In this document: one piece after another, positions 48,988 through 64,000 of the stretch
Numbering within the stretch: the first letter of the stretch is position 1
How the letters are laid out: every line of letters starts with the position of its first letter
IMG/VR virus record: IMGVR_UViG_3300031227_009907
Coordinates: 1-64,000 of that record
Source: a virus
Direction: 5' to 3' (one strand)
Length of the DNA: 64,000 nucleotides
Position numbers and translations under genes: made by a program
Notes under the pieces: model-generated
Seen by the model: the letters and a program-made list of their open reading frames with translations, nothing else
Told to the model about the DNA's origin: nothing
Databases searched by the model: none

Positions 48988-49081
48988 AAAGCTTACAGTC
49001 TTTTTACGTTTTACATTTTTATATTTATTTATGCAACATAAATAGGCTGTGCATCTCTCCTTTATAGATAAGGATTATTAT

Positions 49082-49840
49082 ATGGGTAAGAGTGTAAAAG
49101 GGAAAGGAACGATTACTAGTGAAATTAGTGGGATATATGATAAATATAGCGGGGGTGAGATAAGCAAGGATGAGTTGGGCGAAAGGATTTTTCCTTATCT
49201 TGAGAATTTAGCGGCTTATTATTTTCAAAAAGCAATTAAAGATGGTTTTGGTGAAAATGATGGCGTTTTTTCTACCATTATTACAAAAGAAGAGATTCTT
49301 TCTGATTTAGCTTACAATTTTGTGCGCTCTATAGATAGGTTTGATCCCTCTAAGAATGTTACATTTGGAACATTTTTTTTCAAGAGAGCTATATTTTCTA
49401 TATTTAATGTGTATAGGGCCATATTAGGCAGAAGTAAAAATTGTCATGTTTTTAACGCAACGGACGAAAGAGAGGGGTGCCCTCGATCTTTTTCATTAGA
49501 TAACCCTAAACCCCATATAACTTTTTTATTTGACAATATTGTTTCAAGAGATAGGACTACTTCATATGGGGCCTTTAAATTGGGAAAGGCTGTAGACGCA
49601 AGCATGGGGACTACGGTTGTTATTGCTACTGGAAATGTGTTAAGGCGGCTTAAGGATGGACATAAATTATGGGGGGGGTGGTTTATATTGCATTATTGTG
49701 GAGATGTTACATTGGCTGATATTGCGAGAAAGAATGGTGTAACATTAGCATATATACATCAGAAAGTTAAAAGCATAAAAGAAAAAATAAAGATTGAATG
49801 TAAGAGATTGGATAGAGAGGGGTCTTTTATAAATGTTTAA
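49082..49840 (+). CDS. Phage sigma70-family sigma factor
   Basis: RSIDRFDPSKNVTFGTF (region 2); VTLADIARKNGVT.AYIHQ (region 4). Confidence 0.8.
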   Translation: MGKSVKGKGTITSEISGIYDKYSGGEISKDELGERIFPYLENLAAYYFQKAIKDGFGENDGVFSTIITKEEILSDLAYNFVRSIDRFDPSKNVTFGTFFFKRAIFSIFNVYRAILGRSKNCHVFNATDEREGCPRSFSLDNPKPHITFLFDNIVSRDRTTSYGAFKLGKAVDASMGTTVVIATGNVLRRLKDGHKLWGGWFILHYCGDVTLADIARKNGVTLAYIHQKVKSIKEKIKIECKRLDREGSFINV

Positions 49841-52772
49841 TCCCGGTATGAATGCGTTTGAAATGGCTAAAAAATGTTTGTGCGAAATAGGCAGACAGGG
49901 GGAAGAGTATTTTAGAAGGAAAATAAGCGATCCTCCTTCTCGTTCTTGTTTTAAAGAATATCCCGTTTCCACAAGAGAGTTTTTTAATAAATGGCTTGGA
50001 GAACCTTGTTATCCCTTACAGCAGAAAGGAATAGATAATCTTCTTGGAAGAAATCCCCTTAAGTGGAATATAAGATATAACGAGGGGATACTTTTTTGGG
50101 GAAAGGGAGGGGGAAAAGATAGAACGATTGCAAAACTTCTTGCTTATGTTATTTATTGGTGTATGTGTTTAAAAAATCCACAGAAGTTTTTTGAGAAACA
50201 AGGAAAAGATAGTCAAATTGCTTTTGGTAATGTTTCTATCAATAGGGATCAGGCAGCACAAGTATTTTTTAGAGAATTTAAAGCTATTCTTCGTAATATT
50301 GTTGACCCAAGAACAAAAAATAATTGGTTTGAAGATCATGGGGTGAATTTAAGTGAATCAAGGGGACACATTCATAAACGCGACATTGAATTTCCAGGAA
50401 ATCTTGTTGCCTATTCTCTTGATTCTCGGGAATACACAGGAGAGGGGTATAATCTATTAGTTGTTATTTTTGACGAGATGGGGGGCTTTAGGCCCGAGGA
50501 TGCCTTCCCTTTGTATGGTGCGTTAAAAGACACACAAACTTCTCGATTTCCATTAACACATAAGAGGGCTTTATTATCATTTCAGCGGAGTCCTACTGAT
50601 CCGATGAGTATTCGCTACGAGGAAGCTAAAACAGAGCCCAGGACATACAGAATGAGGGCTTCTACGTGGGAAGTCAATGCGGCTAGAAAAAAAGAAGATT
50701 TTTCTGAAGAGTTCCTTAAAAATCCTGAGCAGGCAGAACGTGTTTTTATGTGTAAGGCAAGGGTAGGAGAAAGAGGATTTTTTAGATACCCACAAGTTAT
50801 TGCTGGGGGAATAAATAGGCAAAGGCCCAACCCTATTATAGCGGGGTCTTCTCGTATTTTTGATTTAATGAAATTGAAAATAGACGGGCTTAGACCCGAT
50901 TTTATTGGTAATCCTAATCTTCAGTATTTTGGGCATTGTGATTTGGGCACTGGTTCTATAAAGAAAAAAAGAGGAGGGAAAGAGTCTTTTTCTCCTTCAA
51001 ACGAAAGAGATTGTGCTGGATTTTGTTTAGGTCATATTGTAAAGACGAAGGTTAGGGCGTTTAGAAGCGTAGGGGGAGAAAGCAAGTCAATTATTGAAGG
51101 AGTTGACCTTTCTAGGTTTAATGGGAAAGAGATGTATGGTGTCTATATTGATATATTTTTTCAATTGACCGTAAAAGAAGGGGAAATATTTTTTCCATCT
51201 ATTATTGATTTTATTGACTATCTACAGAGAATTCGTGGGTTTTATATTAAGAAATTCACGTACGATGGATGGCAATGCGTTTTTTCAGATACATATATCC
51301 CCCTATTAAGTGGGAGGAAGATTAAAATAAAGGATTTGGTGGGAAACTATGAAGGAAAATATGTTTATTCTTATGATATAAAAACGGGGAAGGTTGTTCC
51401 GGGAAGGGTAATTGGTGCAAAAAAAACAGGCAGAAAGAGAATTTTAAAGATAACATTAGATAATGGTAAATTTATTAAGTGTTCTTGTGGGCATCCTTTT
51501 TTAATGAGGAATGGTAGATATAAAAGGGCAAGAGATTTAAAGGTTGGAGATTCTTTAATGCCTTTATGTCGGCGTTTTTGGAAAGGTAAAATTAAAGGAT
51601 ACACGGAAGTATATCACCCTGAGAGTCGATATTATGAGATGGTTCATAGCATTGTTGCGAGAGAAGTTTTACAAGGAAGAAAGAAGAATGAAGTAGTCCA
51701 TCATAAAAACTTTGTTAAGTGTAATAATAATCCTGATAACTTATGTGTGATGGATAGGAAAAGCCACATAGGGTTACACGGTAAAAATGTTAGGAAGTTA
51801 TGGAAGATTCCGTATTATAGAAGATTGTTTATGGACGGGATTAGGAAGGTCTCAAAATGGAGGAGCAATAATAGAGAATATAAGGATAAGGTAAGGGAGA
51901 TAATTAAGAGGGTTTGGCAAGGAAGAAGTATAGAAGAAAGGAAGAAACTTTCTCAAAGAATTGCTAAGAGTGTAAAGAAATTGTGGGATGATCCCAATTA
52001 TAGGGAAAAACAGCGAAAAGCCCATTTAGGGAATCCGGGTTTTTGGAAAGGTAAAAATAGATCGCCTGAAACTTGTGCAAAAATAAGTAAAACGAAAATG
52101 GGAGTTAAGCACGGGAAATATAAAAATCATAAAATTGTTTCTATTGAAATGGAGGGGATGGAAGATGTTTATGACATTAAGGTAGAGAAATATAATAATT
52201 TTGCTTTATCTGCTGGTGTTTTTGTTCATAATTCAAAAAGTGATATTCAGCGTCTTAAGGCTATGGGGATTAATTCTGAGGTGTTGTCCGTAGATAGAGA
52301 TGCCGTTGCGTATGATACAATGAAAGGACTAATGTACTTAGGCCTGTTGGATTATTATAATAATCTTATTTTTATACGTGAATGTGAGGAATTGGAAAAA
52401 ATAGAGAGGGGGAACAAATATATTGTTGACCATCCTGCGCGTAGTGTAACCAGGCGAGTTCAAGAGGGGCGTATATCGGGGTCTAAGGATTTAACCGATT
52501 CTTGCGCAGCCACATGTTTTCACTGCATGGAAAGTGCTGGGGTTGAGTTTAGTTTTGGGATTCTTAATATGCAACCGTCTGAAACCGATAACCTTTTAAG
52601 GGATAGGGACCATAGAGGGGCTGAAAAGTATTATGAAATAGTAAGAGGAAGAGAAGTTCAAAAAGGGGTTGATACATTGAAACAATTAAGACAAGTCCCA
52701 TTGGTCCGGTATGGAGAGATTCCCGCACAGGAATTTCCTGAGGTTGATGATGTTCTTAATCTAGGGAGGTAG
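49833..52772 (+). CDS. terL: Terminase large subunit, intein-containing
   Basis: WGKGGGKD (Walker A), VVIFDE (Walker B), HCDLG, TYDGWQ|S..IQ.L, VDHP, SKDLTD. Confidence 0.9.
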   Translation: MFNPGMNAFEMAKKCLCEIGRQGEEYFRRKISDPPSRSCFKEYPVSTREFFNKWLGEPCYPLQQKGIDNLLGRNPLKWNIRYNEGILFWGKGGGKDRTIAKLLAYVIYWCMCLKNPQKFFEKQGKDSQIAFGNVSINRDQAAQVFFREFKAILRNIVDPRTKNNWFEDHGVNLSESRGHIHKRDIEFPGNLVAYSLDSREYTGEGYNLLVVIFDEMGGFRPEDAFPLYGALKDTQTSRFPLTHKRALLSFQRSPTDPMSIRYEEAKTEPRTYRMRASTWEVNAARKKEDFSEEFLKNPEQAERVFMCKARVGERGFFRYPQVIAGGINRQRPNPIIAGSSRIFDLMKLKIDGLRPDFIGNPNLQYFGHCDLGTGSIKKKRGGKESFSPSNERDCAGFCLGHIVKTKVRAFRSVGGESKSIIEGVDLSRFNGKEMYGVYIDIFFQLTVKEGEIFFPSIIDFIDYLQRIRGFYIKKFTYDGWQCVFSDTYIPLLSGRKIKIKDLVGNYEGKYVYSYDIKTGKVVPGRVIGAKKTGRKRILKITLDNGKFIKCSCGHPFLMRNGRYKRARDLKVGDSLMPLCRRFWKGKIKGYTEVYHPESRYYEMVHSIVAREVLQGRKKNEVVHHKNFVKCNNNPDNLCVMDRKSHIGLHGKNVRKLWKIPYYRRLFMDGIRKVSKWRSNNREYKDKVREIIKRVWQGRSIEERKKLSQRIAKSVKKLWDDPNYREKQRKAHLGNPGFWKGKNRSPETCAKISKTKMGVKHGKYKNHKIVSIEMEGMEDVYDIKVEKYNNFALSAGVFVHNSKSDIQRLKAMGINSEVLSVDRDAVAYDTMKGLMYLGLLDYYNNLIFIRECEELEKIERGNKYIVDHPARSVTRRVQEGRISGSKDLTDSCAATCFHCMESAGVEFSFGILNMQPSETDNLLRDRDHRGAEKYYEIVRGREVQKGVDTLKQLRQVPLVRYGEIPAQEFPEVDDVLNLGR
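51276..52232 (+). mobile_element. Intein (319 aa) with HNH homing endonuclease and NUMOD3-like motif
   Basis: Begins CVFSDT after DGWQ; HPFL block B; VHHKNF.K.NN.PDNL; GKNRSPETCAKIS; EDVYDIKVE..NNF..GVFVHN|S. Confidence 0.95.
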
Positions 52773-53181: not shown

Positions 53182-53583
53182 ATGGATAATAATGAAATAA
53201 AAAAAATAAGGAACGCGATAGGTGAGGTGGATGAGCTTAACAAGGCCCTGGGGGTTGCGATTGGGGCCTTGGCAGTCAAGTATGGTCCTAAGCTGCTTGC
53301 GGGGGCTAAGAAGGCATGGAAGGGGGTTAAGTGGGCTGCTGGGAAGAAGGGGAAACGGGCGCTAAGAAGGAAGTTGGTACAGAATCCTGTAACGGGTAAA
53401 TTAATAGCACGTAAGAGACGTTTTAAAAGGAGACATCCTCGTGCATATAGGATTGGAAGCGGCATTGTTGATTATGCGGCTCTTCATGCTGGGTTTAATG
53501 TCGCTGGGAAGGTGGGAAGGAAGATTAAAGGTAGGCGTGAACGAGAACAGGTATATAGACAATTAGGCCGAAGAAACAGATAG
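53182..53583 (+). CDS. Very basic protein; leader + cationic amphipathic peptide
   Basis: GAGGAGG RBS; ..ELNKA|LGVAIGALAVKYGPKLLAGAKKAWKGVKWAAG.. Confidence 0.75.
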   Translation: MDNNEIKKIRNAIGEVDELNKALGVAIGALAVKYGPKLLAGAKKAWKGVKWAAGKKGKRALRRKLVQNPVTGKLIARKRRFKRRHPRAYRIGSGIVDYAALHAGFNVAGKVGRKIKGRREREQVYRQLGRRNR

Positions 53584-53602
53584 TTAGAATAAGGAGAAAG
53601 AA

Positions 53603-54304
53603 ATGAGTGAGGTGAGGAATATTCTTGGTGAGATTAGAAGTGCCGTTAAGACCATGAATGGGGAGATTCAAAAAGTATCTCCTCGTGTTTTAGGGTTGAT
53701 GGCAAGGGGAACTAAGCGCAGAAAGCAGATTACAGGGGTTTTAAGGGGGGTGGGCTCTGCTGCGTTGAATGTTAAAAGAAATGAGGCTGCTGCAAAGACC
53801 TATAGAGGCATGGCAAGTGCCGCCAAGACTTCTTCTAAAAGAAGGAAATTTTTAGCTTTAGCTCGTAAAGCCGAAAAGACGGTGCGAACCGGTAGGAAGG
53901 CTAGGATTGGTTCGGCTGCTGCCGGAGTTGGTGCTGTTGCTTATGGTGCTGGTAGGCGCAGGGGAAGACGGCAGGGAGACGAGTATGAAGGAGAGGAAGA
54001 GTATGCTCGTGGAGAAGGGCGGGGGGTTGGTGGTCCTCGTCAGGGCTTAGGTCCTGTTGCGTACTGTACTTGCCCTAAGTGTGATTATAAAGTGAAGCAT
54101 ACCCCTAATAAACCTTGTCTTGATATGACTTGTCCTAAATGTGGGGCAAAGCTGGTTGGTACAGAGAAGAAACCTAAAGAGGCGGCTAAAGAAGAGTTTA
54201 GCAACCATATTTCTGAGCCTTTAAGAAATGCCAAGTTTGCCGCTGAAGTATTTCAAGATAGAGCAAAAAGGGTAGAGAAAATACTTAAGACGATTGAGTC
54301 GTAG
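53603..54304 (+). CDS. Very basic modular protein with EEYA spacer and CxCPxC..H..C..CPxCG domain
   Basis: EIQKV|..; GAVAYGAGRRRGRR; EEEYA; CTCPKC..H....PC...CPKCG. Confidence 0.75.
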   Translation: MSEVRNILGEIRSAVKTMNGEIQKVSPRVLGLMARGTKRRKQITGVLRGVGSAALNVKRNEAAAKTYRGMASAAKTSSKRRKFLALARKAEKTVRTGRKARIGSAAAGVGAVAYGAGRRRGRRQGDEYEGEEEYARGEGRGVGGPRQGLGPVAYCTCPKCDYKVKHTPNKPCLDMTCPKCGAKLVGTEKKPKEAAKEEFSNHISEPLRNAKFAAEVFQDRAKRVEKILKTIES

Positions 54305-54307
54305 CAC

Positions 54308-54607
54308 ATGGATACTATACAAAAAATTCAAGTTCAGAATTTAAAGAAGGTTGTAGGTCGCCTTGCAAGACGGGCTACTCTTTTGTCTATAGTTCGTCGT
54401 ATAGGCCCAAAGGTATATTATACTTCCGGCGGTCTCCTTATTGGGGCTAAGGTAGCCAGTAATAGGAGAAGGAAAAGGAAGAAGAGGAAATGGGGGGGTG
54501 CTCCTTGGCGACATTTTAGTAAGGCTGCACTAATCTCGAAGCGTACGAGTGACTTGGTATTCAGTAAGATGATCGGGGAGTATGAAGATGGAACAAGTAG
54601 AGTTTGA
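54308..54607 (+). CDS. Very basic small protein
   Basis: LKKV|..GGLLIGAKVASNRRRKRKKRK..FSKA. Confidence 0.6.
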   Translation: MDTIQKIQVQNLKKVVGRLARRATLLSIVRRIGPKVYYTSGGLLIGAKVASNRRRKRKKRKWGGAPWRHFSKAALISKRTSDLVFSKMIGEYEDGTSRV

Positions 54608-54845: not shown

Positions 54846-55035
54846 AATACCCAAGGTTCTTCATAAAACCATTTATTGCTGTGGAGAATGCCCTTTTTAC
54901 GGATATGTGCATTTACCTGGATTTCATAGTATAGGTAGTTTTATTGGATGTAGGGAGCGAAATATGTTTGTAACTGATAGCCAAGCTCCTCCTAAAAAAT
55001 GTAGGCTACCTAATTTAGAAGATAATAGTGGATAA
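54826..55035 (+). CDS. Small Cys-rich protein
   Basis: C.ECPF ... C ... P..C.L. Confidence 0.55.
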   Translation: MIGQVAEIPKVLHKTIYCCGECPFYGYVHLPGFHSIGSFIGCRERNMFVTDSQAPPKKCRLPNLEDNSG

Positions 55036-57328
55036 AGCTCATAATCCTAGACTAATAGCGACACAGCGATCTAAAAAGCCCTATAAGAAGATACCTACAC
55101 AGAGAGTATCTTTAATTAAGTCTGTGATGCAGGCTGCACAAGACAATAGAAGCATCGTTATAAGCTACACGCGGGTTAGTGATGGGAAGCGAGTTAAGCG
55201 TAATTTAGATTATTATTCATTACGTTTGAGAAAAGCCGGGGGAAGGGTGCAACCGGTATTATTTGGGTATCATCCCGCACACAATAGTATTGAAATGTAT
55301 GTCGTAAAGAACATTCACTGGGTCAAGCCCGGACGTAGGAAATATGAACCTATATGGCCCGTTGAGATTGGAGAGAAAGGGATAAAGAAGGGAAGGAGAC
55401 AAATATCAGAGATTCTTGAATGGGTTCCTGCCGTTAAATATAAAAGGAGAATATATGTTGGGGGTGTAATGTGGGATCGTAGTTTTAAAGATAGACCTTA
55501 TTTTAGAAGGGCCATGCACCATCCTGATATTATTAGGACATATTTACAGGATGAGATAGACAGGCTTGGATATGATGAATTTATTAAAGGAGTAACAAGG
55601 GGGTGGGTTGACCTTAATGGAAGATTTCATTCTGTGCAAGAAGTTAGGATAGGTAACGAAAAACTTGCTGCAAGAAAGCAAAGATTACAAAAGAAAATGG
55701 AAGCTGGCTATAGAAATAAGATGAGGAAAGGTGGAAATAGGCTTCAGCGTTTTATATGGAGAGATAAGCCAAGCAATAATTATGCCTTTAGAGGGGTATC
55801 ATTTGTTGAACTAAAGAATATTTATAAAACTAAACAAATTAAGTCTCATGGTAAAATGAATATTTTTGATAAGGAACCAGGAAAAACGTATTTTTCTGAT
55901 ACGGCTGTAGTTGCTTCGAGTAGGGCGGCTGACTATAAAGGATACCTTTTAATACTTAAGAAAGATAAAAGATATTTAAATAGAGGGATAAGACATTGGG
56001 AGGACATGCTTTATTACACCCCCACCAAACCTGTCCCATCGTCTATTGTGAAGAGGGTTATAAAGTTTATTCCTCTTAGTGCTCCCGGTAAATGGCCCGA
56101 AGAGTGGTTTAGTTATGCTGATGTAACAAAGAGATTTAGGGATGGGTCTTTATTCAGTCGAAAGAAGAGAATAAGGAAAGTTTCTAATAAAACAAAAAAG
56201 ATAAGGCAATTAGATAACTTTTTTGCTTCTCTTACAAGGGCGGTGAAGTATGGGCGTAGTGAAATATATCCAGCAAAAGACCCTTACGAAACTCACGAAG
56301 AGATTTTTGATAGGGTATATAGAATTGCAAGGGGCTCTAATGGAAAGGAGGGCTATGTTACCCCCACTGGTCGTTTTATTTCTTATTATCAAGCGTCTGT
56401 ATATGAAAGAGAGTATGTTGAATTAGCTCAAGATTCTTCAATGGAATGGCCCATAGATACGGGGAAATATAAGGGGGTAAAAAACCTGTGGGAGCGTCCT
56501 AGGTCTTATAAGCGAAAGAAGAGAATAAAGAAGTCCCTTAGTGTTCCCGATGGTCCTAATATTTCTCCTGAAGGGAAAGCTTATACAATTATATGGGCAA
56601 ATGGGAAGGGGCTAACTACATGGAAAACACGCAAGCAAGCCCTTCAATTTATTCGCATAAAAGGGGATGACGTAAACAGTTTTACTTATGGAGATAAAAA
56701 AGGTCCAAAATATATGGATGTTTCTCTTATTGGTAAGGCAATAATGAAGTTCCGTAGAATGCCGTGGCATTATATTGGAATGTTACAGAGGGCATTTGGG
56801 GGTGTATCCCATCATGTATTGGCAGTGGCGGCAAGGAAAGGTAAGCTGACTATAGAAAGGTTAGCCGAAGCAGGAATCCCTAGAGGTAAAGCCTCTTCAA
56901 TTGTTGAATATCTAAAGAGAACAAGAATTCCCGGGAGAGTTAAAAAGCCTTGGGTTGCTTCATATTATCCCAAGGGAAGAGAAATTCACATGTCTCCTAA
57001 TATTTTAGGGGGGAGAAAATGGGCGGCATATATACATGAAAATGCGCACGATATTTGGTTTAAGGTATTAAAGCCTAGAGAAAGAAAAATATTTACTAGA
57101 ATAGTGCGTAGACATTATCCTGATTATTATAATGCAATTAAGGAAGGGTTAAAAGATAGCGGGTATAATGTGACACAAGTCCCTGGTGAATTTTTTGTTA
57201 GAGTAGTTGAAGCACGTAGCCGTTTTCCATCTAAATATAAAAAGCTTATTGGAGATGACCGGTTTTTCCCTAAGGTAATGAATTATTTCTTTACAAAATA
57301 TCCCGCTTTATTAAATCCCCATAAATAA
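55028..57328 (+). CDS. Polyvalent multidomain protein: WYL + repeated His domain x2 + ADP-ribosyltransferase-like + zincin (HExxH)
   Basis: IVISY....GK...R....YSL....LFGY (WYL); YAFRG..TYFS....A (ART-like); YIHENAH..GEFF; domains separated by basic linkers. Confidence 0.7.
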   Translation: MDKAHNPRLIATQRSKKPYKKIPTQRVSLIKSVMQAAQDNRSIVISYTRVSDGKRVKRNLDYYSLRLRKAGGRVQPVLFGYHPAHNSIEMYVVKNIHWVKPGRRKYEPIWPVEIGEKGIKKGRRQISEILEWVPAVKYKRRIYVGGVMWDRSFKDRPYFRRAMHHPDIIRTYLQDEIDRLGYDEFIKGVTRGWVDLNGRFHSVQEVRIGNEKLAARKQRLQKKMEAGYRNKMRKGGNRLQRFIWRDKPSNNYAFRGVSFVELKNIYKTKQIKSHGKMNIFDKEPGKTYFSDTAVVASSRAADYKGYLLILKKDKRYLNRGIRHWEDMLYYTPTKPVPSSIVKRVIKFIPLSAPGKWPEEWFSYADVTKRFRDGSLFSRKKRIRKVSNKTKKIRQLDNFFASLTRAVKYGRSEIYPAKDPYETHEEIFDRVYRIARGSNGKEGYVTPTGRFISYYQASVYEREYVELAQDSSMEWPIDTGKYKGVKNLWERPRSYKRKKRIKKSLSVPDGPNISPEGKAYTIIWANGKGLTTWKTRKQALQFIRIKGDDVNSFTYGDKKGPKYMDVSLIGKAIMKFRRMPWHYIGMLQRAFGGVSHHVLAVAARKGKLTIERLAEAGIPRGKASSIVEYLKRTRIPGRVKKPWVASYYPKGREIHMSPNILGGRKWAAYIHENAHDIWFKVLKPRERKIFTRIVRRHYPDYYNAIKEGLKDSGYNVTQVPGEFFVRVVEARSRFPSKYKKLIGDDRFFPKVMNYFFTKYPALLNPHK

Positions 57329-57444: not shown

Positions 57445-57627
57445 ATGGTTAATTTGGACGATAGAAAGTTTTTACAAGAATTGAGATACAAAGCTATTGC
57501 AAGAGCACACAATACCCCTAATTTAAGTTAGGTATGGGAGGAGGCTTATGAGGATTTAGCACAGGCGGCAGATAAGTTGGATGCAATGTTGGCAAGGAAA
57601 GTTATTATTGAGGAGAAAGAAGGATGA
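57445..57627 (+). pseudogene. Small phage protein with in-frame TAG at 57529
   Basis: AAGGAG RBS; MVNLDDRKFLQELRYKAIARAHNTPNLS*VWEEAYEDLAQAADKLDAMLARK...; ATGA-coupled to next gene. Confidence 0.6.
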
Positions 57628-57932
57628 AGAGGATTTGTGTTGCGTTGTTGATAGTCATTGGTTTATTGGGTATGTCTGGCTGTGTTACACTTCAGGCACA
57701 GTTCGACGAGAAAGTTGATGTCTACGCAGATAGTATTGTTGAGGCTATCGGCCCTGAGCTAACTGATGCTATCATAACGGCGGCAGACAATGAGACCGCG
57801 AAAGCAATGGTCTTAGATTGGATTGAGGACAAGTGGCTCAAGGGAGACGATCACCCCGTTATTAAAGCGTTGCTATCTGAGGCCGCTGATATTGTTGTCA
57901 GAGAATTAAGACAGGCCGTTGAGAGACCGTAA
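57624..57932 (+). CDS. Lipoprotein
   Basis: MKR + hydrophobic core + MSG-C lipobox. Confidence 0.75.
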   Translation: MKRICVALLIVIGLLGMSGCVTLQAQFDEKVDVYADSIVEAIGPELTDAIITAADNETAKAMVLDWIEDKWLKGDDHPVIKALLSEAADIVVRELRQAVERP

Positions 57933-58054: not shown

Positions 58055-58492
58055 GTGAAAGATATATGCGCGTCATATTTATTGACCGCTGGGATGGTGG
58101 TTTTAACCTGCTTTCTTTTTCTAGGTTGTCAATCCAGCGGCCCTACCCTTGGGGACTCCCCACAAGCCCAGGATAGTAATTCAGACGTAGGATGGTATCA
58201 GGGGGTCACGACTAAGTTGAAGCTGGCCATACAAAACCCTAAAGTGCAACTAGGGACTGGGGCAACCGGTATATTTGCTATCCTTTTTTTAATATTAAGA
58301 TGGTCGTTGAAGTTTATAAACCTTTTTGGTAAATTGACAGGGAGTATTGCAACTGCTGATAAGATTGGGATGGATCGTAAAGAGTTAGGGACACTTCTTA
58401 AGATATTTAAGCAGGGATTAAAGCCTAGTGAGCTTACATTCCTTGATAAATATTTGGTTAAGAACAAAAATAAGGTAAGTATAAAGGAGTAA
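58055..58492 (+). CDS. Lipoprotein/membrane protein (possible lysis function)
   Basis: FLG-C lipobox plus internal TM segment. Confidence 0.6.
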   Translation: MKDICASYLLTAGMVVLTCFLFLGCQSSGPTLGDSPQAQDSNSDVGWYQGVTTKLKLAIQNPKVQLGTGATGIFAILFLILRWSLKFINLFGKLTGSIATADKIGMDRKELGTLLKIFKQGLKPSELTFLDKYLVKNKNKVSIKE

Positions 58493-58826: not shown

Positions 58827-59651
58827 ATGAATGAGAGCCCCATATCTATAAAAGATGGCCTGTTAAACGCAAGAGATAGTAGGAGGAATATAGATTGCGG
58901 CGACATAAGATATGGGGCTTCTTTTTTATCTAAAGGAAGTTTGCGTAGAAAGAGAGATTTACAGATAAGGCGTCTTGAGTTATTCTTATTATCTCTTAGA
59001 AAAGCTCTTAATGTTGATGGACAGGTTATTGTGGGGAGCGAACATGAGAATCATTTACAAATAGCTGATAGAGTGGCTGTAAAGTTAGGGTATAAAGGGA
59101 GTGAAAGAGTTATTGATTTTGTGAATGGGTCAAGACGCGATGTGAATTTTGGCTTTGTAAATATAAGGACGGGGAAATGGATTGATGAAGATGCTGCCGT
59201 TGGGTTTGAAGGGAAGTATGCACGATTGATGGGAGTGGTTGGATTGCCGAATAGAAAGATTATAAGAAAGGCTAATAATAAGCTCCAGAAAGGTCTTTTA
59301 CATTCAGGAGAGAAAGAGATTATCTTAAGCATCTGGAAGTGGCTTGAGAGGAATGGAGAATTTCAGCGTAGGATGGCTGAGATCATCACGAGGTATGGTT
59401 ATGGGGGCATAGGGGGTAAGTTTGGCTCTACGGTCAAGCTATCTATGGGGAAAGCGATCAGGTTGGCTAGGGAGGCAGACCAACAACGGCTGATTGGCCT
59501 CAAGGTGTTGGCTCCTAGGGTAAGCTTCCTTGATAATGTTAGCAGAGATATGAAAAGGAGATATAAGGGGAATATAGAAACGATAGTAACTCTTCTTGGG
59601 AAGAGGAGAGACCAGTTAGTCAGTATTGCCGTTAGAAAGAAATATTCATAG
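58827..59651 (+). CDS. Basic modular protein with a third copy of the His domain
   Basis: LRKA|LNVDGQVIVG..ENHLQI..FGFVNI.TGKWI; LSKG, IRKA, LQKG linkers. Confidence 0.65.
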   Translation: MNESPISIKDGLLNARDSRRNIDCGDIRYGASFLSKGSLRRKRDLQIRRLELFLLSLRKALNVDGQVIVGSEHENHLQIADRVAVKLGYKGSERVIDFVNGSRRDVNFGFVNIRTGKWIDEDAAVGFEGKYARLMGVVGLPNRKIIRKANNKLQKGLLHSGEKEIILSIWKWLERNGEFQRRMAEIITRYGYGGIGGKFGSTVKLSMGKAIRLAREADQQRLIGLKVLAPRVSFLDNVSRDMKRRYKGNIETIVTLLGKRRDQLVSIAVRKKYS

Positions 59652-63242: not shown

Positions 63243-64000
63243 ATGCCAGTTTTCGGTTCTGGGGCAGTTCGTATTCCTGAAGCAGCCAAGTGGCATCTAT
63301 TATTTTGGCTATTAAGCGATTTATACACAGGGGCAAAAGGACCCGCTATGAGGGAGAAACTGGAGCGTATTATAGATCGCGTTCAAAGGCGCTATAATAC
63401 AAGGAAAGTCTCCATTGATGGTGACTTAAAGAAAGTTTCTATCCTTGGTGAAAGCCCTATAACTGCTTTGCATGAGTTGATGGGTGTATTTAATAGACAT
63501 AAACTCTCTAAGCAGCAGATACAGTGTGTATTCAGCCAATTAAATAAGCCGGAAGAGAAGGTTAATCTTGTAAAAGACTTAATTGGCGTAGATACTGATG
63601 AAGATAGAATGATATTAAAATGTGTTGCAACCGTAGCAGGGGCTAAAGGGAAGGTAGAAGAGTATGCTAGTGGTAAAATAGGGGTTTTTGCTAGTAAACA
63701 GGGAAAGAGATTAATTGACTATATTGCTCGTAAGAGTCCTAAGAAGGCAGCGGAATTGGCGCGGACTCTAAAGGATGCGAAAACTATCGGTAGGACGACA
63801 AGAGATGTTGCAAGACGCCATAAATATACAACAGGGGCAATAGCGGGTGTTGCCGGAACATTGGCTGTTCAAGCGGGTAGACGTAAAAGACGGCGTAATG
63901 AATACGAGGAAGAGTATGCTGGAGGTAAACTGGGGGTCTTTGCTGGGGAACAAGGGAAGAGATTAATTGAGTATATTGCCCGTAAGAGTCCCAAGAAAGC
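63243..64000 (+). CDS. Basic repeat polyprotein, 3'-truncated (not in ORF track)
   Basis: AGGAGG RBS; frame open to window end; 84-aa unit starting EEYA.GK.GVFA..QGKRLI.YIARKSPKKA at 63657 and 63909. Confidence 0.8.
   Translation, partial: MPVFGSGAVRIPEAAKWHLLFWLLSDLYTGAKGPAMREKLERIIDRVQRRYNTRKVSIDGDLKKVSILGESPITALHELMGVFNRHKLSKQQIQCVFSQLNKPEEKVNLVKDLIGVDTDEDRMILKCVATVAGAKGKVEEYASGKIGVFASKQGKRLIDYIARKSPKKAAELARTLKDAKTIGRTTRDVARRHKYTTGAIAGVAGTLAVQAGRRKRRRNEYEEEYAGGKLGVFAGEQGKRLIEYIARKSPKK

Follow-up and report, generated by a model that had tools for sequence, protein, structure and literature searches.

The 64,000 nucleotides of the window analysed here form the start of an IMG/VR phage record of 81.6 kb (IMGVR_UViG_3300031227_009907; ~78% complete, all genes on the + strand) that belongs to an uncultured salt-lake phage. 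Between its large terminase and its portal this phage encodes P0001 (55028..57328, + strand), a chain of unrelated modules with basic linkers, and every one of the five inter-module linkers contains a single motif formed by a hydrophobic residue, any residue, lysine and a small residue (S/A/G/V), written h-x-K|small, in which the bar marks the putative cut. The motif is also enriched in the protease-scaffold proteins of the clade to which the phage belongs, and the prohead protease of this clade most likely cuts after its lysine. Given the lysine motif at all five joints, P0001 may be packaged in the capsid, cleaved into its modules and injected, and the reading that we tentatively favour is that it is a new phage polyvalent protein whose linkers are cut by the XkdF-type prohead protease.

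The lysine motif in P0001 and in the capsid genes of the clade

The P0001 gene, which starts with GTG, is uninterrupted over its 766 codons, and its product (766 amino acids, 90 kDa, pI 10.3) is composed, in this order, of a basic tail, a WYL domain, a domain here called the His domain, an ART-like region, a second His domain, a small module and a zincin-like module. Two or more unrelated globular modules are thus joined in one phage polypeptide, encoded in a record that also holds terminase, portal, capsid and prohead protease genes, which bears out the chain of modules proposed in an original prediction made from the sequence and its open reading frames (ORFs). According to that prediction, h-x-K|small motifs delimit the modules, and all the motifs that it listed are present: LIKS (residues 29-32), IKKG (119-122), MRKG (232-235), IRKV (382-385), IKKS (500-503) and IGKA (568-571) in P0001, LNKA in ORF 53182, IQKV in ORF 53603, LKKV and FSKA in ORF 54308, LSKG, LRKA, IRKA and LQKG in ORF 58827, which also contains MGKA, and LKKV in ORF 63243. 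Further instances in P0001 are found at K3, K69 (LRK|A, in the WYL barrel), K187 (first His domain) and K749 (zincin-like module).

One motif is present in each linker (K121, K234, K384, K502 and K570), and shuffling within the linkers, which were drawn after the motif positions were known, gave 1.5 motifs expected in total (probability of five or more, 0.011; of a motif in all five linkers, 0.001), the expected number of linkers with a motif being 1.3 against the five seen. The arginine counterpart is distributed differently, given that none of the ten h-x-R|small instances falls in a linker, all being in domain cores, whereas five of nine h-x-K|small instances lie in linkers (Fisher, ~0.011). 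At the level of the head-gene block, a motif near the N-terminus (residues 8-60) is present in 12 of 22 ORFs, compared with 14 of 67 elsewhere (p=0.004).

The strongest new evidence, independent of P0001, is provided by the capsid genes. Searching with the capsid protein gave nine related loci (39-58% identity), which with this phage make a clade of ten, in which the protease-scaffold proteins are enriched 2-3-fold in the motif without exception (10/10). The protein of this phage (L004:10802-12532) is an XkdF/S78_2-type prohead protease fused to the scaffold (PF14550 Peptidase_S78_2 at 9.8e-8; phrog_9427 head maturation protease at 6e-23), accompanied by a SU10-type major capsid protein, and has 11 motifs against 3.8 expected (p=0.001), while those of all nine relatives have 7-14 against 3.3-5.8 expected (p 0.000-0.083). 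The pooled z reached 4.3 in this phage, in three relatives it was 6.6, and in the pooled test all variants with R, E, D or Q replacing K, with the motif reversed or with shifted spacings were flat. In the N-terminal arm of the capsid protein, h-x-K|A/S is kept in nine of the ten phages, the tenth locus being without that end: seven close phages have D[IL]QK|AI(S/T) and two at 40% identity have IAK|ST, so that the lysine and its hydrophobic partner are constant while their neighbours vary. Moreover, h-x-K|S/V/I occurs behind the protease domain in 8/10 phages, close relatives have another site in the scaffold C-terminus after a conserved P-R-K, and the portal carries an N-proximal IQK|A, that of G004 likewise carrying FSK|A. 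The motif is therefore found in capsid and portal leaders, where the original prediction had suggested looking for it.

Relatives also carry a recurrent junction tag, h-x-K-(A/G)-(E/D)-W-x-E-x-x-HPRD-x-x-G-(K/R)-F, which occurs in proteins encoded between terminase and portal and behind the portal (loci L005, L008, L009, L010, L014, L015 and L019), among them the MuF-type fusions, whose joints bear it. The tags are located between Pfam-defined domains, and among 22 distinct ones the lysine is present in all and the hydrophobic residue two places before it in 21. No description of the tag was found in the literature searched.

Taken together, the ten enriched scaffolds, the conserved capsid arm and the lysine of all 22 tags favour the lysine-directed cutting rule of the original prediction, and the prohead protease of the clade most likely cuts after Lys in h-x-K. 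Site-rich scaffolds and a trimmed capsid N-terminus are typical of T4, HK97 and phiKZ-type systems, and it is for this reason that the rule is a reasonable one to derive from the capsid genes. HK97 gp5 is cleaved at K103|S104, with Lys at P1 (the residue before the cut). In phage P1 cleavage is after Glu; a literature search for a Lys-specific prohead protease yielded nothing usable.

The modules of P0001

Residues 24-116 (55097..55375) are a WYL domain, made up of a helix (24-38) and an Sm-like barrel, as profile, AlphaFold2 (AF2) and fold searches agree. It follows a basic, unmodelled N-terminal tail (residues 1-23, 55028..55096) in which residues 1-16 have a predicted local distance difference test score (pLDDT) below 50 in AF2. 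P0001 alone matches PF13280 at E 0.011 and 16.2 bits, under the 21.8-bit cutoff, but 23 of the 24 aligned members of the WYL-region family match it (best 1.5e-10), and the family profile matches the WYL domain of PafBC at 1.1e-6. In the AF2 model the pLDDT is 85-96 over residues 21-115 and above 85 in the helix. Foldseek with this model retrieved BrxR, PafBC and CapW at E 3e-4 to 1e-3, and superposition by VIA on DriD, PafBC, BrxR and CapW gave Z 9.7-11.7 with a root mean square deviation of 2.5-4.5 A over 87-94 residues, the alignments to DriD, PafBC and BrxR beginning at residues 10-19. The WYL identity originally proposed is thereby established. P0001 shares the fold of these regulators and differs from them in having neither HTH nor WCX, the barrel standing alone behind a basic tail as in its stand-alone homologues. 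A role in sensing or binding nucleic acid is suggested by the family.

An exhaustive HMMER search with P0001 against 1.8 billion representatives found 25 relatives of the WYL region, its only other match being to residues 494-557. These WYL homologues are metagenomic proteins of 103-401 amino acids, most of them stand-alone, which likewise have basic or Pro-rich N-terminal tails; the C-terminus of most of them aligns with 113-117, five positions ahead of IKK|G. This first linker motif (K121|G122, 55382..55393, + strand) is itself five residues past the end of the WYL domain. An IMG/VR scan with the homologue P0002 gave nothing, and no WYL domain was seen in the portions of the relatives examined. 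In a subset of the homologues (P0006, P0014, P0015, P0017 and P0021) a conserved N-terminal peptide, (L/Y)-x-G-Y-G-(L/I)-P-(L/V)-P ... R-x-x-K-I-P, precedes the barrel and may be a docking motif.

The His domain was also correctly singled out by the original prediction. A profile search identified six copies in the genome, distributed over three putative cargo proteins: two in P0001, three in tandem in a 1031-amino-acid post-portal protein and one in ORF 58827 (E 1.7e-24). One further copy belongs to a ParB-containing protein of a related phage and is the sole piece of P0001 that recurs in relatives. In P0001, the first copy (residues 123-235, 55394..55732) has an internal FIK|G at K187 and a C-terminal helix (203-233) that ends at MRK|G (K234|G235), and the second, with its tail (residues 386-502, 56183..56533), ends in KRKKRIKK|S (K502|S503). 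The AF2 model, built from seven sequences only, has a mean pLDDT of 90.4 and predicts a small sheet with two helices, a short one and a long C-terminal one. Pfam and PHROG families gave no match to the domain, word-indexed searches with its profile (among longer proteins and among proteins of near length) and an IMG/VR scan with the tandem alignment gave nothing, and Foldseek with the model found no PDB entry at E 0.001 or better. BFVD returned weak matches (E 0.06-0.6) to uncharacterised phage proteins and to phage proteins annotated as 'large polyvalent protein associated domain'. The wide VIA search returned only chromodomain-like matches (Z 4.7-4.9), too weak for naming a fold. The copies and the model point to a real, undescribed folded module. 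In the 1031-amino-acid protein each of the three tandem copies is directly preceded by the motif (VEK|A, FSK|A or FSK|S), and for the His domain a shared role in handling or at junctions is more likely than an effector function.

The remaining modules are less clearly assigned, and in P0001 both the ART and the zincin calls are leads only. The ART-like region (residues 236-385, 55733..56182), which ends in the polybasic tract RKKRIRK|V (K384|V385), has Arr-ms, PARP, DUF952, Scabin/Pertussis_S1 and Tox-ART-HYD1 as protein-atlas neighbours (TM 0.47-0.62), and it contains R255, S290 and E325, spaced 35 residues apart like an R-S-E triad, as candidate catalytic residues in a region absent from the AF2 model. 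The zincin-like C-terminal module (residues 571-766, 56738..57325) is helical in AF2 (pLDDT 55-94), with HENAH (670-674, nucleotides 57035-57049) in a helix, Glu candidates for the third ligand in the next two helices and an internal FPK|V at K749; its atlas neighbours are ATLF, Peptidase_Mx1, M78 and MPTase-PolyVal (TM 0.37-0.53). Neither segment matched Pfam, PHROGs or PDB sequences, so that the original ART and zincin calls stand on atlas neighbours and on candidate residues. Between the second His domain and the zincin-like module lies the small module (residues 503-570, 56534..56737), ending at LIGK|A (K570|A571); residues 494-557 have a match (E 1e-5) in P0016, a stand-alone protein of 103 amino acids. 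In the AF2 prediction of full-length P0001, residues 235-393 and 456-577 are unmodelled.

As a whole, P0001 has a single known counterpart, an identical protein on a 99-kb contig. No homologue was detected by tblastn against 50,697 phage records, by word-indexed protein search or by IMG/VR scan. Searches of Pfam and PHROGs, with P0001 entire and segment by segment, yielded no usable match to the His, ART-like, small and zincin-like modules, and no Pfam polyvalent-domain model (MPTase-PolyVal, ART-PolyVal, LPD) matched.

Possible processing of P0001 and competing explanations

If the favoured reading holds, an XkdF/S78-type prohead protease would cut after Lys in h-x-K, with a small residue preferred next, as the capsid genes of the ten phages suggest. 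P0001 would be loaded into the prohead and cut at K121, K234, K384, K502 and K570 into six basic fragments of 7.5-23 kDa. The fragments would then exit with the DNA, and in the host the WYL module would, by analogy with its family, bind single-stranded nucleic acid, while the ART-like and zincin-like modules, again judging by their families, would modify or cut host proteins. Packaging is favoured by the His domain and the zincin-like part that P0001 appears to have in common with the post-portal protein of 1031 amino acids, which occupies the MuF position. This shared pair, together with a domain set typical of injected polyvalent proteins (PMC5512222), argues against P0001 being an accessory counter-defence gene made in the infected cell rather than virion cargo. 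That explanation would fit the interval between terminase and portal, which is hypervariable among relatives and holds non-structural genes, and the absence of P0001 from five related records; we regard it as the least probable of those considered.

Several observations weigh against cutting at the linkers. By plain counting P0001 is unremarkable, because the ten motifs of the whole protein compare with 5.6 expected (p=0.055, 1000 shuffles) and the h-x-R control is as enriched (10 against 4.9 expected), so that enrichment at this level, a check named in the original prediction, is marginal. Of the six borders that it proposed, five lie in linkers, and the sixth, LIK|S (K31), is in the middle of the N-terminal helix of the WYL domain, which both the model and the alignments to solved WYL domains include in the fold, and where a cut would break the helix. 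Of the further instances, K69, K187 and K749 are deep in domain cores. In addition, the motif itself was chosen after the sequence had been seen, the linkers are 16% Lys, and two of the linker sites have Gly at P1' (the residue after the cut), which is absent at the conserved capsid and scaffold sites. None of the five related phage records has a P0001 ortholog at E 0.1 or better, and the only other copy is identical. The HPRD..GRF tags are absent from the genome of this phage, and the head block also contains non-virion genes (a methyltransferase, sulfotransferases and lipoproteins).

Many of these points would be accommodated if P0001 were not processed at all, but were a single chain, packaged or cytoplasmic, whose linkers serve as flexible nucleic-acid-binding spacers and whose motifs reflect chance and selective reading. 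The whole-protein count, the arginine control, the instances within folded domains, the post hoc definition of both motif and linkers and a pI of 10.3 throughout the protein are in line with this explanation, as is the head block without the scaffold, which has 55 motifs against 45.4 expected (p about 0.1). It accounts poorly for a motif in five linkers out of five where 1.3 are expected, for the lack of any h-x-R|small in linkers that are 12% Arg, for the motif in front of each tandem His domain of the 1031-amino-acid protein and for the clade-wide evidence on h-x-K, and we consider it somewhat unlikely. Cutting by the C-terminal zincin of P0001 itself, before packaging or after injection, with h-x-K incidental or representing the sites of the zincin, is to our judgement unlikely. 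HENAH and neighbours of the zincin family, including MPTase-PolyVal and M78, are consistent with it, the 1031-amino-acid protein of paralogous architecture also has a zincin (HEFGH, Peptidase_Mx1 4e-4), and in-chain processing by the zincin is the published expectation for MPTase-bearing polyvalent proteins (Iyer et al., PMC5512222). On the other hand, the motif also occurs in capsid protein, scaffold and portal, which have no zincin; P0001 is itself only a candidate zincin, with no Pfam match and only candidate residues for the third metal ligand; and N4 vRNAP and ArdC, which have MPTase domains, are transferred uncut (PMC5512222).

A broader view would extend the favoured reading, cutting of P0001 by the prohead protease, to the whole clade. 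The entire injected proteome would be defined by one h-x-Lys code, with the XkdF-type prohead protease as its reader; the His domain would be a cargo-handling module, the structured counterpart of the 'K-...H...GRF' tags of the relatives, that loads unrelated effectors into the head; and the bare WYL domain would be a decoy that soaks up the single-stranded nucleic-acid signal triggering host defences of the BrxR/CapW/PafBC type. That all these proposals hold jointly seems to us very unlikely.

The head-gene block and relation to known systems

DNA identical to the window is present in many metagenome runs from salt lakes, of which some may derive from the source sample itself; the listed matches are all salt-lake metagenome DNA runs, with no RNA run among them. 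The head-gene block runs in the order terminase, three small basic proteins, P0001, lipoprotein-like, methyltransferase and sulfotransferase genes, two proteins of 747 and 815 amino acids, portal, the 1031-amino-acid protein, protease-scaffold and capsid protein. A scan for promoters and terminators gave counts at the level of shuffled sequence.

The block starts with the large terminase (49833..52772, +), which contains an intein (PF14890 at 4.5e-22) with an HNH endonuclease; the terminases of relatives are without the intein, their alignments jumping over residues 485 to 800. Just 5' of it, ORF 49049-49840 has weak sigma-factor matches (Sigma70_r2 E 0.003, phrog_351 7e-5). The three small, very basic proteins (53182..54607, +) have short N-terminal helices that end at LNK|A (K21), IQK|V (K24) and LKK|V (K14), leaders that resemble the capsid N-terminus. 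Directly 3' of P0001, ORFs 57624-57932 and 58055-58492 have lipoprotein-like signal peptides ending in Cys. The 274-amino-acid protein with one His domain and five motif instances is encoded at 58827..59651 (+), and the 747-amino-acid Lys/Arg-rich protein, with LKK|V at K64, starts at 63243 (63243..64000 in the window, +). This protein and that of 815 amino acids (63243-64000; L004:243-4936) show internal duplications, hydrophobic stretches rich in Gly/Ala and acidic E-Y-E spacers behind polybasic runs, and have no family matches.

The window ends before the genes for the portal, the post-portal protein, the protease-scaffold and the capsid protein (L004:4959-13691). The portal (L004:4959-7358) is ~200 residues longer than in relatives, and its additional module, at the C-terminus, contains a hydrophobic stretch rich in Gly/Ala and starts right after KKIKK|VLDD (K594|V595). 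The post-portal protein (L004:7351-10446) consists of a zincin-like N-terminal part, the three tandem His domains and a C-terminal part of 320 residues. In relatives, the post-portal proteins are of the MuF type, fused to S-AdoMet lyase, HAD and ART-like modules; those at L014:9993-11870 (-) and L018:10842-14324 (-) have weak Phage_Mu_F matches, with an S-AdoMet lyase (PF23780, 2e-11) or a HAD hydrolase and further modules as fusion partners. A module common to these two proteins resembles an H-Y-E-type ART (VYH(S/G)T...).

Polyvalent proteins are multi-module phage chains, often with zincin and ART domains, predicted to travel with the DNA and to be cut into units (Iyer et al. 2017, PMC5512222). 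P0001 resembles them in joining unrelated modules in one chain, among them leads for a zincin-type peptidase and an ART-like module, in its late/head gene context, and in its predicted delivery with DNA and proteolytic release of modules. It differs from them in its WYL domain, which is not among the polyvalent domains described there and is mentioned for CRISPR only (PMC5512222), in its His domain, which belongs to no Pfam or PHROG family, and in the proposed processor, a prohead protease instead of an in-chain zincin.

Head proteases with several roles are also known: for the T4 internal proteins and Alt (gp21, L/I-x-E), as for phiKZ and SPN3US head proteins, a single protease is responsible for trimming the capsid protein, degrading the scaffold and cleaving packaged proteins, some of them at more than one site (PMC10052503, PMC7411985), Alt being a packaged ART (PMC5512222). 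Those proteases are of the T4-gp21 type, cut after Glu and have had their cleavage measured, whereas the enzyme considered here is of the XkdF/S78 type and its preference for Lys at P1 is deduced from sequence. MuF-fused toxins (Jamet et al. 2017, PMC5576092) are like the MuF-like post-portal fusions of the relatives, and the 1031-amino-acid protein, which shares the His domain with P0001, holds the same position as the MuF proteins of the relatives; P0001 itself has no MuF domain and is not adjacent to the portal. No mention of junction motifs or of cleavage was found in the paper on MuF toxins (PMC5576092). Polyvalent cargo proteins and the trimming of packaged proteins by a head protease are thus already known, and what is new is the presence of WYL among the modules of such a protein, the His domain, and a case at the level of a clade for a Lys-specific code read by an XkdF-type protease.

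Lys-specific head-protease systems have perhaps been overlooked, because their cuts are invisible to standard tryptic proteomics. If the favoured reading is true, the expected processing enzyme of some polyvalent proteins would move from their own zincin to the head protease, and a WYL domain and a new small fold would join the repertoire of injected phage proteins. A hydrophobic-x-Lys motif in exposed linkers would then predict, from sequence, both the capsid-loaded proteins and their cut sites across a clade of uncultured phages.

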